Positions 4,226 through 22,611 of a stretch of 64,000 bases of DNA are shown in pieces. The notes under the pieces are model-generated. The model saw only the letters and a list, made by a program, of their open reading frames with translations, was not told where the DNA came from and did no database searches. Within the stretch, counting starts at the first letter, position 1; every line of letters begins with the position of its first letter. The stretch lies in NCBI GenBank assembly GCA_000182565.2, contig KQ257462.1; one strand, written 5' to 3'. Made by a program: the position numbers and the translations under genes. The DNA is from Spizellomyces punctatus DAOM BR117 (Eukaryota).

Positions 4226-5016
4226 TAGTGTGGAGGTGATTGAAAATGGCACTAAGACCCATTATTATCCGGATAATCCGGTTAATCATATCGCATAATC
4301 AGCACCCCCATCTATCGCTCGAAGCGGTGAGGCATGCTAATGTAATGTTCTCCAAACTGCGGTGTGGCATGAATGTAATGTTTTTTTTTCTTTTTCAAAC
4401 TGTGATGAGGCGCATGCTGAAGGTCTATAAAAGGGGGACTTTTCCCTCTTTCCTCTTTATCCATCCTCGACTCGCAAGCATCTGCCCAACGCTCATCGCG
4501 ACCCATTGCAACCTCATAGCGACCCACACAACCTCATCGCGACTCGGTCAACCATGAGAACGCTGATGTGGTGGTGTCGAGGACCTCGACCGCCCGACAG
4601 CAACAGTGATCAGAACCAGCGGCAACCAATCGGATCCGATAACAAAACCTACTATTATGCTGCCACATTAGTTGAGCTTGGTTGGTATGTACCAATGGCA
4701 TCATCTCTTTTCATGTTATTCTGTCACTAACATGCATGTATAGTCTCCAAGTCTTGTCACTGAACATCCTCTGGCTTGTGACGCTGCCCAGTCGATTCGC
4801 TCCTGGATGCAAAGTCTGGCTTCAATGCCATCAAGAGTTCCAGATCAAGGCCTAGTAGGGACCGCGTGTGGTGGTGGGCAATTATCCGGTTAGAACAACC
4901 GTTACGTATTGCGTGTATAATTGCCTATTAGTAGTTAGTTAACTTTTCCGAACCGGTTGTCGCCGGTTTATTCCCTGGTGTAGTAGCTAGTGCCAGTTTC
5001 TGTCACCTCTCCACTA
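4226..5016 (+). mobile_element. Non-autonomous Fanzor-associated TIR element ('ghost' locus / MITE), copy 1
   Basis: ~30-bp imperfect TIRs (TAGTGTGGAGGTGATTGAAAATGGCACTA ... TAGTGCCAGTTTCTGTCACCTCTCCACTA), TA at both ends, CATA at 4224-4227. Both ends are shared with the copy at 11507-11720. Confidence 0.85.
4490..4545 (+). repeat. Three imperfect ~19-20-bp tandem repeats (CTCATCGCGACCCA-type) inside element copy 1
   Basis: gctcatcgcgacccattgcaa/cctcatagcgacccacacaa/cctcatcgcgactc. Confidence 0.7.
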
Positions 5017-5031
5017 AAAAGGCCTAAATAA
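4943..5031 (+). ncRNA. Putative Fanzor omegaRNA (scaffold 4943-5016 plus flank-derived guide ~5017-5031, AAAAGGCCTAAATAA)
   Basis: CTTTTCCGAACCGGTTGTCGCCGGTTTATTCCCTGGTG..GCTAGTGCC..CACTA closely resembles the SpuFz1 omegaRNA scaffold as I recall it. Hairpin AACCGG-TTGTCG-CCGGTT; internal TAGTG complementary to terminal CACTA. Confidence 0.75.
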
Positions 5032-5181
5032 TCGATGCTGCATGCATGTGTTACTCATTAGATACAAAAAAGGCTTAATGAGAATCACATGATTTCTATA
5101 GCAACCAGCGGAAATTGAAAGGTGAACAGATGCAAGACCGTCGCCGAGCAGGTCGGCGTTTGACCTTACAAAACTAGAAAG

Positions 5182-6303
5182 ATGCATAGCTTTGTGGGCC
5201 GGGCACGACAGACGGTGTTGCGGCAAGGCTCAGCAGTGACTGGAACTGTCATAGCTACAAGACGCGGTATGGATTTTGCTGTTGATGGTTGTTTGTTTTT
5301 ATAGCGTTCTCAAAGACGAAACACAGCCCAAGTTCTTCTTTGCGTAAACAATGTCGCCAAATCCACGTTTTTCCACACCCATTTCCCCCAGCGTACCTCC
5401 GCAACTTCCGAAGAATCCCTCGATATTCCTCCAGGCGTCACACCCACCTTTCACAACGCATACAACTCCCTGAACGATGCACTCAACTGGTCGAAAACTA
5501 CTCCAGCAAGCCTCCGTCTTCTTTCCTACAATATCAAAACTTCCGCTGACGCTCAGCTGTTTCAAACTGCACTAAAGAGATGGCGTAAAGCGCGGCAACC
5601 ACAAAATCGCACGGATAATGCCTTGTTTTTGGACATTCTATTCAAAATTGGGGCGTATGAGACGATTTTGGAGATGCTTTGTGATCGGCCTGGATATAGG
5701 GTTTTACCTGATTTCCAGCATATCAGCGAGCTGATGGCTGGCTTCAGGAATGTGGCTGTGAAAGGAGAAGGCAGTGAGGAGGAGGTGATCGCGGTCTTGG
5801 ACAATGTGTACAAGACTTTTGCCTTATTTCTGTACTACAGTATTCCTCCGACGGCTGAGATCTACTCGGCGGTCATCACTTCTGGTGTGTATTGCGGGTT
5901 ACCAGAGGGATGGAGAAGGTCCGAGGTGACTGCCAAGGAACAGATTTCCCTTGGACTACCTTTCGAGAAGGAGGCGGTGTACGCCCTAGCTCACGGATAC
6001 ATCCTCAGTGGGGATTTTGACGGTGCGCTGACAATTCTCAAACACCTTGGCGGGGCGGATACGATTGGGCTGTTCTTTCAATTTCATTCTCTCGCATCAA
6101 AAGGCGACATACAGGGAGCCATTCAAGTCTTGGAAAAGCTAGCGGCAGCGGATCAGGTCAATGTGGCAAATGTTGTCGGGTCAGCACACTGGAAATCGCT
6201 GAACGAGGTCGTGGAAGCATTACTCCCACAGTTGAGCGAAGTGGAAAAGAAGACCGTGCTGGCGTTGGCGGAGAATGCTAACGTAAAGTTATCATCTGCA
6301 TAA
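5182..6303 (+). CDS. Hypothetical helical-repeat (PPR/TPR-like) protein, probably mitochondrial
   Basis: Short exon MHSFVGRARQTVLRQGSAV.. (Arg-rich, presequence-like), intron GTATGG..CCCCAG (~5266-5391), then a long open exon to TAA at 6303 with a helical-repeat pattern (ALAHGYILSGDFDGALTIL; SKGDIQGAIQVLEKL). Confidence 0.55.
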
Positions 6304-10800: not shown

Positions 10801-11085
10801 GGGAGTATCCAAAGCATAAATCTCTTGCCGGTTACCCACCTTGACTTCACGGAGATTCACAGCGTCTTCCCAGTTGTGGTACTTTTGTTTCATTTTCTTG
10901 ATCGCAACCTAAGAAATGTCTCGTGTGAGAACAATCTGCTGATGTCGTCCAGATGCATTGGCCCACCGTTCCCAATAGTAAAGGCAGAAACCACTAACCC
11001 GCTCTCCATTCTCCCTGTGCTCAGCCATAAGCACCACCCCAAAAGACCCATCCCCAATCTGCTTCGTAACCGTGTACTTGTTCAT
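7845..11085 (-). CDS. MAK/ICK (RCK family) Ser/Thr kinase with long disordered C-terminal tail
   Basis: [82 protein letters not shown] (TEY activation loop). Confidence 0.92.
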
Positions 11086-11491
11086 CTTCACAATTGTAAA
11101 ATTGCCCAAACCAAAGATAAGATCGTGACTCAACCCGATGGAAGGAACAAGGTGTCTACTTGGGCGAGAATGTGAAAATCGGTTGCGATTGCCTGGGACA
11201 CATCACGCATGCAAACAATGTGTTCGTGGGAAGATGGGCATGTGCTGCCTTAATCGACGCGTGTGCAATTTGGTGAAAGATAAAGTTTCTAGAAGCGATG
11301 GTGAGGTTGTGTTTGAAAATGCGAACGCTTCTCTTCAAACGTGACGCTATAGCGCAAAGGCCCGCAATGGGCCAAAATGGTGGCAGGTAAAAACAGTGTT
11401 TTCGGAGGAATGCTCTACGATAGTGCGGCTGGCAAAAGGCAACGTGACGGTCGGATTCGAACCCCGACCCCCATTTTTCATTCTCCGATGA

Positions 11492-11582
11492 ATTTTAGAT
11501 GTTCTTTAGTGTATTAGAGTGACAGAAAATGGCACTAGCTACTACACCAGGGAATAAGCCGGCGACAACCGGTTCGGAAAAG
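11492..11582 (-). ncRNA. Putative Fanzor omegaRNA, copy 2 (guide AAGAACATCTAAAAT from flank)
   Basis: CTTTTCCGAACCGGTTGTCGCCGGCTTATTCCCTGGTGTAGTAGCTAGTGCCATTTTCTGTCACTCTAATACACTA on the minus strand. Confidence 0.72.
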
Positions 11583-11720
11583 CCAAGTAATTCCCTCCTT
11601 ACAACCAACTACCACTAGGCCCAATTACACATGCAATACATTACGGATTATGCGATATGATTAACCGGATTATCCGGATAATAATGGGTCTTAGTGCCAT
11701 TTTCAATCACCTCCACACTA
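11507..11720 (-). mobile_element. Fanzor-associated ghost MITE, copy 2 (internally deleted, ~214 bp)
   Basis: Reverse complement of copy 1 ends: ~75 bp left end essentially identical, CATA at 11722-11719, right end with omegaRNA-like scaffold ending CACTA at 11507. Confidence 0.85.
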
Positions 11721-12145
11721 TGGTGTTTTCGATAAACGCTCGTATGAGCATGATTTGGCAAGGACCAAAAAAACATGATCTGAACAAAGATGGGGCATGC
11801 ATTATCCATCTTTTACCTACGCATTCATGCCCGTCGTGCCAATTGTGACCTGGTAGTGATGCAGCATGCATAGCATACACGCGTGCGGAACCAGAAGGAT
11901 AGCTGCCGCATGTCGGCCGACAAAATAAAGACAATGCAAGCAGCCTTCCTTTTCGCCTACAGCACCGCCAATGCCTCCAGCCCTCCAGCGACAATCGCCC
12001 TTCGCCTTGAAGAAGCCGCAAGTCCTCAGATATGCTTATGTAATACATCGCTTAGTTTGATGGCGCAGCAACTCTGCTCCCGAAATTCAAAATCCTCCAA
12101 GTCAAAGCTGCGTCCTTGGCCAACACTGACCGATCCCATTTCACC

Positions 12146-13956
12146 ATGACGGCCATGACACCAGAAGAAAAGTAAATATGAGCTCTTTCCTCCGTTCATG
12201 AGGAGACAGACAACTCACATTTTTTATACAATGTAGATTTGAGCTCATTAACCGCAACCTCCAAGAGGTGCTTGGAGCGGACCAGATCAAACAGATCCTC
12301 GCACAGCGGGATTTGAATTTGTACTGGGGTACAGCGCCTACGGGGAAGCCTCACATTGGCTACTTTGTGCCTATGACCAAGATTGCGGATTTCTTAAAGG
12401 CGGGATGTCATGTACGTCTTTTTGAAACCAAGTTTCTGTTGAATGGGAAGAATTGGCAATAGTCTAGTGACTGATATGTTCCCATACCGCATTTAAAAGG
12501 TTACGATTCTCTTTGCCAACCTCCACGCGTACCTCGACAATATGAAGGCTCCTTGGGATCAACTAGAGCTCCGCACAAAGTACTATGAAGCGACCATCAA
12601 GGCAATGCTCACTTCCATCGGTGTCCCATTGGATAAACTCAAATTCGTCGTGGGAACATCGTACCAATTGAGCCAGGAATACTCACTGGATGTGTACAAA
12701 ATGCTCGCAATCACGACCGAGCACGATGCCAAGAAGGCTGGCGCCGAGGTCGTCAAACAGGCTGCGTCACCGCTCATGTCCGCGCTTGTCTACCCTCTTC
12801 TCCAGGCTTTGGATGAGGAGTATTTAAAAGTAGATGCCCAGTTTGGTGGAGTAGACCAGCGAAAGATTTTCACGTTTGCGGAAAAGTACATGCCAAATCT
12901 TGGATACAAGAAGCGGGCACACCTTATGAATCCCATGGTGGCCGGTTTGCGAGGATCCAAAATGAGTGCGTCAGACCCAGATTCCAAAGTGGATTTACTA
13001 GATGATGCCAAAACTGTAGCCCGCAAGATCAAAAAGGCGTTCTGCGAGGAAGGGAACGTGGATGATAACCCCCTTTTGGAGTTCCTCAAAGTCGTCGTCT
13101 TCCCTGCCCGATCTTTGACTGACCCAACCTACAAATTTGTCGTCAAACGACCGGAAAAATTCGGTGGAGACATTGTATTTGACTCTTACCAACAAATCGA
13201 AGATGCCTTCCGCGAAAAGAAATTGCATCCGGTGGATTTGAAGACTGGGACGGCGGACGCCATCAACGCACTCCTGGAGCCCATTCGAACTACATTCAAG
13301 GACGAAGCATTGATTCAATTGTCCAAAGATGCGTACGGAGACGCTCAAGCAGCGGCCAAGCAGATCAAGAAACCCGTGCAAAACTCTGCAGAACCTGATG
13401 TGGAAAACATTTCCAAATTGGATATTCGTGTCGGGAGAATCGTTGACATTAAACTCCACCCGGACGCTGAGGTTGGTGCCACTCCAACCCTAATTCTGTT
13501 GCACAAAGATTAATCAAATGGCTTTAGTCCCTCTACGTAGAACAAATTGACCTGGGCGAACCTACTGGCCCACGGACGATTGTTAGTGGTCTAGCTAAGC
13601 ATATTCCCCTCTCAGAACTCCAGAACCGTACCGTTCTCGTCCTTACCAACCTCAAACCCAGCAAACTCCGCGGCATTGAATCCAACGGCATGGTCTTGGC
13701 AGCTTCCACCTCAGACAACACAACTGTCGAGCTCCTCGATCCTCCGTCGGAAGCCTCTGTAGGCGATCACGTATCGTTTGAAGGGTTCGACTACGCTCCT
13801 GTACCCATCTTGAATCCCAAGAAGGATGTGTGGAAAAAGTGCGCGGGCGAAATGAAGGTGGACGGCTCGGGGGTTGCGGTTTTCAGGAACGTGCCTTTCG
13901 TGGTGGGTGGGGGTGCCGTCAAGGCACGCAGTTTGAAAGATGCCTTGATTGGATAA
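12146..13956 (+). CDS. TYS1: Cytosolic tyrosyl-tRNA synthetase with C-terminal EMAP-II/Trbp111-like tRNA-binding domain
   Basis: [14 protein letters not shown] (HIGH-like), [16 protein letters not shown] (KMSKS-like); C-domain [55 protein letters not shown]. Confidence 0.95.
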
Positions 13957-21981: not shown

Positions 21982-22527
21982 ATGGGGGCTGAATTCTTTT
22001 TTTTTTTCTGTTGGAGTCTTTTTCTTTTTTTGTTCTTGGTTTTGTAGATATCTCTTTTTGCTTTGCTTTTTGTTTGCTTTTTTCTAGGGTTTGTTTTTCT
22101 TTTGGATACCAGAGGGTGGATAGTTTCAAACGCGGATGTCCCTCACACACTGTCGTGTTCTTTGCTTTTAGATTTAAGATAGTTGGCCACCAGTTGGATA
22201 AAACGCTGGTGATTATGGAACGAGTAGTAAGAGACTTGATGTGTAGCAGTAGCGTATATCATCTCTTTTTTTCGTGAACATTGCCTTTACACTTTTTCTT
22301 CAACCAACTGGTTTTTGGTCAGTCAGTCTTTCCGAGTGGTACTAAAGGGCTCAACAAGTTTTTGACTTGAAGTACATTATCAGAATGTCAGAACTCGGTA
22401 AAGTGAACACCAAAGACAGAAAGTTTCTGCAAAAGTTCAGCGGTTCTGCCACAGTGAGCCATGGATAAAGTTGGGGAATAGTCGCAATTATGAAAATAAA
22501 AAAAAACGGACGAGACCAATATGGGAG

Positions 22528-22611
22528 TCCGGCTTCCCAGAGTCGAACTGGGGACCCTTAGATTCCTGAGCAATTACAGTCTAATGCTACTACCAACTGA
22601 GCTAAAGCCGG
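22528..22611 (-). tRNA. tRNA-Tyr(GUA) with ~10-nt intron
   Basis: CCGGCTT/AAGCCGG acceptor stem (C1:G72, A73), TAGCTCAGTTGG A-box, TTAGA-CT-GTA-A-[intron]-ATCTAA anticodon arm, GTTCGACTC T-loop, downstream T-run terminator at 22506-22498. Confidence 0.93.

Follow-up and report, generated by a model that had tools for sequence, protein, structure and literature searches.

A 214-bp ghost Spu-1 element of Spizellomyces punctatus, probably an internally deleted and decaying copy

The element and its neighbours

The window, a stretch of 64,000 nucleotides from contig KQ257462.1 of Spizellomyces punctatus DAOM BR117, carries a 214-bp TA-to-TA element on the minus strand (positions 11507 to 11720, with CA directly before the left TA), and this element lies between two divergent genes. 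On one side is the 5′ end of a MAK-type kinase gene (10845 to 11085, minus strand), whose ATG at 11085 is 421 nt from the element; the assignment is based on the supplement annotation "CMGC/RCK/MAK protein kinase" and on a Pkinase match in a downstream frame. On the other side is the gene for a cytosolic tyrosyl-tRNA synthetase (TyrRS; 12146 to 13513, plus strand), with a likely ATG at 12146, 425 nt from the element, and a first intron at 12172 to 12236, the evidence here being the Pfam domain tRNA-synt_1b, best PDB matches to cytoplasmic TyrRS, and a GT..AG joint in one contig of run X1. The domain and PDB matches together with the supplement annotation agree with the neighbours named in a preliminary description of this DNA. 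An open reading frame at 11707 to 12048 had no Pfam match.

The annotated kinase mRNA has its 5′ end at 11496, 11 nt past the right end of the element and inside its putative guide, a position obtained from the mRNA end at record position 251 after record position 1 had been matched by eye to window position 11246. Since the guide has the same sense as the kinase mRNA, the two cannot pair. An effect of the element on the kinase or the TyrRS gene is possible, by position only. We also observed a perfect Pol III B-box-like motif in a short hairpin of the kinase leader (11453 to 11463, minus strand), 28 nt past the guide. A tRNA link of this hairpin was ruled out, as ARAGORN made no call there and the motif occurred in 1 of the 98 downstream flanks listed, and its likeness to a Fanzor right end was not significant, being equalled by 24% of random stretches. 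Elsewhere in the window, ARAGORN called a tRNA at 22527 to 22611 (minus strand), probably intron-containing, for which the program left the anticodon undetermined, and an Rfam search over the 64 kb yielded nothing at gathering thresholds.

Read along the minus strand, the element starts with CATA (11719 to 11722), in which the flanking CA is followed by the left TA of the target-site duplication. This tetranucleotide is the SpuFz1 TAM, and its position at the left end, noted in the preliminary description, was read directly. Both the TAM and the CA motif before the left repeat are documented (Saito 2023, PMC10432273), and a TA duplication has been given as putative for SPu-1 (Bao and Jurka 2013, PMC3627910). 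The left terminal inverted repeat (11692 to 11720), marked "end" in supplementary file 7 of Saito 2023, pairs through its inner 19 nt with 11519 to 11537 at 89%, and it opens a left arm of 75 nt (11646 to 11720) that has the same letters as copy 1, another ghost in the window, and two further copies. At a deletion junction (11645 to 11646) with 1 nt of microhomology, where about 430 bp of R1-type interior including the TATA box are gone, the left arm meets a right arm of 139 nt (11507 to 11645), which belongs to subfamily R1, copy 1 being in another subfamily. The right arm contains a 77-nt omegaRNA scaffold (11507 to 11583), with an intact basal stem 2 and a private A-C mismatch in stem 1 (11558), and ends in the right terminal inverted repeat and the right TA (11507 to 11537; consensus plus 2 nt). 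The putative guide is the 15 nt of host flank after the right TA (11492 to 11506), according to the definition in section 7 of Saito 2023. Without gaps, the left and right repeats agree at 12 of 29 positions, the commonest value among the 98 paired copies listed being 24 to 25; the inner 19 nt of the repeats are still intact, as is basal stem 2.

Membership as a ghost Spu-1 in the sense of Saito 2023 follows from the homology of both ends to the Spu-1 inverted repeats. Elements of this type belong to the Fanzor1 system of Spizellomyces and normally give rise to guide RNAs for the Fanzor nuclease. Like the ghosts in the accessible text of that paper, the element has no Fanzor ORF between its ends (214 bp in all), inverted repeats of ~30 nt, CA (here CATA) at the left repeat, and a right-end, omegaRNA-like scaffold of about 75 nt (here 77 nt, with a two-stem fold), but it lacks their conserved interior of ~550 nt with the TATA box, which characterizes a full-length, self-transcribing ghost. 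The locus is already catalogued: the same sequence is labelled "ghost" in supplementary file 7, in a record where both ends are marked and the MAK kinase mRNA begins 11 nt past the right end. The accessible text counts 134 loci with Spu-1-like ends, no Fanzor gene, a 75-nt scaffold and a 14- to 15-nt guide, and in it we found no discussion of short derivatives, subfamilies or breakpoints. SPu-1, as described in the accessible part of PMC3627910, shares related terminal inverted repeats and a putative TA duplication with the 214-bp copy, but it is ~2.1 kb long, encodes Fanzor1 and stands in a table row without a transposase superfamily, whereas the 214-bp copy is non-coding.

The element also has a MITE-type structure, being short and non-coding with terminal inverted repeats and a target duplication. 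It resembles the Tc1/mariner-derived MITEs of PMC3814204 (accessible part) in its short length, TA flanks, inverted repeats and internal deletion, and it differs from them in being a single copy, in a 1-nt overlap instead of 6- to 8-bp microhomology, and in its guide scaffold. A MITE family comprises many near-identical copies of one short form, but the deletion junction had one exact match genome-wide, the other two matches carrying 3 mismatches.

The ghost family and the parentage of the short copy

Copy 1 (4226 to 5016) lies on the plus strand, in the opposite orientation as stated before, and is a full-length ghost of 791 bp in subfamily R2, with TATAAAA at 4426 to 4432 and an intron-like GT..CTAAC..AG segment at 4685 to 4743 that the 214-bp copy has lost. 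The first 77 nt including CA are identical between the two (77/77), in line with the essentially identical left ~75 bp of the preliminary description, and the scaffold core, described there as kept, agrees at 67 of 72 positions. Homology ends at CATA and at the right TA, and the flanks differ. The match thus stops at the element boundaries; this ruled out a segmental duplication, for which homology would reach into the flanks, and is as expected from the independent insertions into unrelated flanks that had been proposed.

A simple deletion of copy 1 was likewise ruled out, since the right arm of the 214-bp copy comes from the other subfamily. Among the copies listed, its edit distance is at least 9 to R1 copies and at least 23 to R2 copies; its best relatives are 92 to 96% identical, and R1 makes up 19 of the 98 paired copies listed. 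Because the right arm belongs to another subfamily than copy 1, about 430 bp are missing, not 580: the loss against the two best-matching full-length R1 copies is about 426 to 438 bp, and the ~580 bp of missing interior reported earlier is correct merely as the net length difference from copy 1 (577 bp). Left-arm haplotypes were found with all right-arm types among the copies listed, and therefore the family is mosaic. Identical left arms, which are also shared between subfamilies, occurred in 1% of 7,021 pairs. For the 21 pairs within 30 kb this rate predicts about 0.2, and one was observed; the left-arm identity was not significant, and local gene conversion from copy 1 was set aside as a weak lead only.

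Genome-wide searches with the ends (24.1 Mb of S. punctatus) gave 111 left and 112 right matches, while the reversed controls gave 0, and therefore these matches are not due to chance. A census of 152 loci was compiled from the matches listed (100 of 111 left, 100 of 112 right), and its 119 left ends comprise 98 of type A (paired with a SpuFz1-type right end), 13 of type B (paired with another right end) and 8 unpaired; one further copy, of 245 bp, lies outside these 119. CATA stood at the left end of 83 of the 98 type-A copies listed, against 8% of 5,973 NNTA sites in the flanks, and the right TA was present in 97/98, and TATG, the mirror motif, stood on the right in only 3/98. Therefore the CATA prediction holds and the bias is one-sided. 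These counts answer the check for a CATA bias among other copies that the preliminary description had called for, and they agree with its view of independent insertion at CATA.

The 214-bp copy is the shortest of the 98 paired copies listed, most of which measure 630 to 800 bp, and it lacks the TATA motif that 95 of the 98 contain. Eight derivatives are shorter than 600 bp (214, 245, 255, 451, 471, 475, 570 and 573 bp), and their breakpoints are all different, so that tabulation by length, also suggested earlier, revealed no common short class. Among the seven type-A copies below 600 bp listed, five were assigned to R1 and one more carries a right arm similar to R1; copies of R1 seem to undergo internal deletion readily. 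The 245-bp ghost (L086, 1191 to 1435) keeps a TATA-like box directly before its scaffold; as a candidate for the minimal expressed unit it is stronger than the 214-bp copy. Four loci (L082, L138, L140 and L165) carry a second copy of the first 7 to 10 nt of the guide at, or overlapping, the element's left end, a pattern that repair of a cut target site would be expected to leave. An open frame of more than 600 aa was present in 16 of the 30 Fanzor loci examined.

Scaffold, transcription and interpretation

Both scaffold tails and the guide read as quoted in the preliminary description. Its statement that variation is concentrated in the last ~25 nt is right in that the tail differs, but it leaves out a private U>C at scaffold position 26 (window 11558). 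Copy 1 has a private tail variant of its own, 72 of the 98 copies listed carrying the consensus tail, and a form of the 214-bp copy's tail that is shorter by one base is present in 8/98. The tail change sits in distal stem 2, a part that is off the protein, trimmable and dispensable according to the accessible text of Saito 2023; the term "natural scaffold variant" is accurate, but the variant is a minor one, in a dispensable part of stem 2 and with a one-base-shorter form in other copies. The basal 7 bp of stem 2 are intact in the predicted folds of the 214-bp copy, and its 5′ UCC motif is intact. The right ends of two Fanzor-bearing loci of a third repeat type (L212 and L220) match the variant tail over their last 11 nt, which suggests, as far as sequence comparison goes, that ends may have been exchanged between families.

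The U>C change turns an A-U pair of the protein-bound stem 1 into A-C. Over 93 copies (2 further rows being out of register through an insertion), pair 11:26 was A-U in 84, G-U in 6, and A-C in the 214-bp copy alone. Pair 14:23 covaries in the same 93 copies (61 G-C, 22 A-U), and therefore stem 1 is under selection in the family. In predicted folds, the outer-pair probability of stem 1 is 0.09 in the 214-bp copy versus a median of 0.98. The private base at position 26 had no match in the X2 or X3 contig pieces listed, contigs of a kind that drop rare variants. As to the guide, no CATA-plus-guide target was present elsewhere in the genome within 2 mismatches, by which self-targeting elsewhere was ruled out; there were 10 other genomic matches, all at 3 mismatches, and the control gave 20. 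In the filled allele, ACTA, not CATA, precedes the guide.

Transcription was assessed in one RNA run, X6, of which 6% was read (35,124 records, reads of at most 60 nt) and in which processed omegaRNA may be missed; the species label is shared with the low-depth runs, strain and library design are not given, and a small number of reads from the kinase leader and TyrRS suggest that first mates are sense. Minus-strand depth reached ~21,000 over 11601 to 11650, and 18,718 reads diverged at the junction into parental sequence, while the unique flanks of the 214-bp copy had depths of 0.76 (guide bin) and 1.38, four orders of magnitude under the family total. These data indicated that the family is strongly transcribed and the 214-bp copy at most weakly. 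The window letter at 11657 was found in 38 of 92 reads, and the private allele at 11558 in at most 15 of 2,791 (0.5%), a value of about half the even per-copy share and within the error range. Upstream of the element, minus-strand depth rose to 1.8 over 11751 to 12100, possibly a divergent transcript from the TyrRS promoter. This low depth allows read-through into the 214-bp copy, and the X6 data are compatible both with silence and with weak read-through. The RNA check proposed for the locus thus returned an abundant family and, for this copy, trace reads at most.

In two low-depth DNA-like runs, which may be the assembly's own sample, the element ends were covered at ~100 times the flank depth, and contigs from both (X2 record 3 and X3 record 17) matched both outer junctions, including the variant tail, without differences. 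No junction-bridging piece was present among the 17 contig pieces listed (101 more exist), and no empty allele at the insertion site was seen in 4 runs.

Taken together, we regard the 214-bp element as a one-off, internally deleted, decaying copy of a non-autonomous ghost Spu-1 transposon, with a probability of roughly 0.78; it looks like a broken leftover and not a minimal working unit. In the proposed course of events, a full-length R1-type ghost of ~640 to 650 bp would have inserted at a TA with TA duplication, as seen in the anatomy of the element, presumably by a TA-specific transposase acting in trans. With CATA at the site, the empty allele would present TAM plus guide, and SpuFz1 could cut it in trans, restoring the insertion; the CATA bias is observed, and the homing step is borrowed from TnpB biology. 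This Fanzor-cutting retention model follows the accessible part of a TnpB review (PMC13565253), and such retention has been proposed as the source of IS607 target bias (bioRxiv 2023.08.09.552727, accessible part). A break in or at the element, followed by end joining or abortive gap repair, may then have joined the left arm (75 nt) to the right arm (139 nt) at 1 nt of microhomology, the junction being visible and the mode of repair our proposal. Loss of the TATA-driven interior would have left a scaffold without its own promoter and with at most weak read-through, which is partly borne out by the reads, and the stem-1 mismatch and the repeat insertion seen in the sequence would have been gained with no multiplication since. 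A single copy does not in itself imply immobility, because cut-and-paste need not raise copy number.

The preliminary description had seen here the minimal mobilisable, omegaRNA-encoding unit. The first part of that view was not supported, the junction being single-copy, common short length classes lacking and the right inverted repeat out of register, nor was the second, as the TATA box is gone and reads are at trace level. It is very unlikely that the element is a nascent MITE which moved into the CATA site as a 214-bp unit: TA at both ends, CATA and the intact outer ends would fit, and internal deletion of Tc1/mariner elements can yield MITEs (PMC3814204, accessible part), but there is one copy and no common short size class, and the right repeat is shifted out of register by 2 nt. 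Moreover, a guide that worked at fixation is the best explanation of the CATA bias, in which case the interior would have been present at that time.

That the locus is a working guide locus is also unlikely, though less so. In this case, a host promoter located between the divergent TyrRS and kinase genes would drive transcription through it, SpuFz1 would trim the omegaRNA, and the guide would home to empty alleles at the kinase transcription start. While the intact CATA, basal stem 2 and 5′ UCC motif, the minus-strand reads upstream (at most 1.8) and in the guide bin, the start of the annotated kinase mRNA within the guide, and the reported function of 75-nt ghost scaffolds in cells (source accessible in part) are all compatible with such a role, the depth so far below the family total, the private mismatch in the protein-contacting stem 1 with its low outer-pair probability, the lack of an empty allele in the 4 runs and the 3 mismatches in every other CATA-plus-guide match argue against it. 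There is, finally, a very slight chance that assembly contributed to the short form, through a repeat collapse or an erroneous base call, as none of the 17 contig pieces listed spans the junction and the private base at 11558 is in no X2 or X3 contig listed. However, contigs (possibly from the assembly's own sample) match both outer junctions and the variant tail, such contigs drop rare variants, 101 pieces exist beyond the 17 listed, and there are seven other short derivatives. The decaying, internally deleted copy thus preferred here carries little weight by itself, as a published catalogue entry that looks like a decayed derivative; it offers studies of ghost-guide production a natural control that lacks a promoter.

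SPu-3-type ghosts, a candidate transposase and published scaffold lists

Type-B ghosts combine the usual left end with the right end of the Fanzor element SPu-3 (Bao and Jurka, PMC3627910, accessible part). Their 26 loci (L155 to L180) derive from 27 matches, one of which was dropped as a left end. In the 21 with a left end within 1.5 kb, the flank motif was NTTA in 18 and CATA in 0, and a Fisher test on the 13 type-B copies of the census gave p = 1e-9. It is possible that they provide ghost guides to a second Fanzor whose TAM is different. With CATA at the left end of the full SPu-3 gene and CTTA at an SPu-3 fragment, the reading of NTTA as a TAM is unproven.

The census also revealed a single-copy, 3.0-kb element with 27-nt inverted repeats (L182, 2541 to 5566; G000:C3:531540-534565), which encodes, in an open frame at L182 positions 4348 to 5409, a 354-aa HTH + DDE_3 protein with D, D and E at the expected motifs. 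A second frame has a weak SUKH-3/US22 match, two ghosts flank the element, one of its ends has AA instead of TA, and the 354-aa protein had no PDB sequence match. Its repeat agrees at 21 of 27 positions with the left end of the 214-bp ghost and at 22 of 27 with a type-B end; among 5,860 TA-starting 27-mers in the window, two, both ghost left ends, reach 21, and the rest reach at most 17. The accessible text of Saito 2023 states that no transposase flanked by Spu-1 repeats was found. Our literature search and motif searches of both supplements, in which line breaks can hide matches, found no report of the element; their scope was sources other than Repbase and subscription papers. On its predicted protein and repeats, this IS630/Tc1-type transposase element is a candidate mobiliser of Spu-1 and ghost elements.

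We tentatively propose, at somewhat less than even odds, that the 214-bp copy is a scar left by repair within a system of three parts, in which an IS630/Tc1-type transposase moves Spu-type elements into TA and each Fanzor keeps the insertions at its own TAM; such retention would place ghosts with SpuFz1 scaffolds at CATA and ghosts with SPu-3 right ends at NTTA. Against this proposal stands the CATA of the sole full SPu-3 gene, and transposition and the SPu-3 TAM are predictions. If true, it would supply a candidate mobiliser where Saito et al. found none, predict that the SPu-3 Fanzor has an NTTA-type TAM, and provide genomic evidence of Fanzor homing in a eukaryote. The census outweighs the 214-bp locus, in that it yields a candidate Spu-1 transposase and a flank motif that tracks the guide scaffold and not the left end, and the two make the natural role of Fanzor directly testable.

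Comparison with the gst1 to gst126 collection (PMC13434818, Supplementary Data 1) showed that the scaffold of copy 1 is gst105, whereas that of the 214-bp copy is absent and, by eye, three edits from gst9. The reverse complement of the left end of the 214-bp copy corresponds, by eye, to gst29, gst106 and gst110, and therefore the list mixes left ends with scaffolds. Also by eye, many "ghost scaffolds" in supplementary file 5 of PMC13434818 are reverse-complemented left ends (such as gst7, gst73 and gst98) or SPu-3-type ends (gst8 and gst16). It is these left-end and SPu-3-type entries that are reported to be poorly active, and the presence of such ends in the published scaffold list may explain some of its inactive entries.
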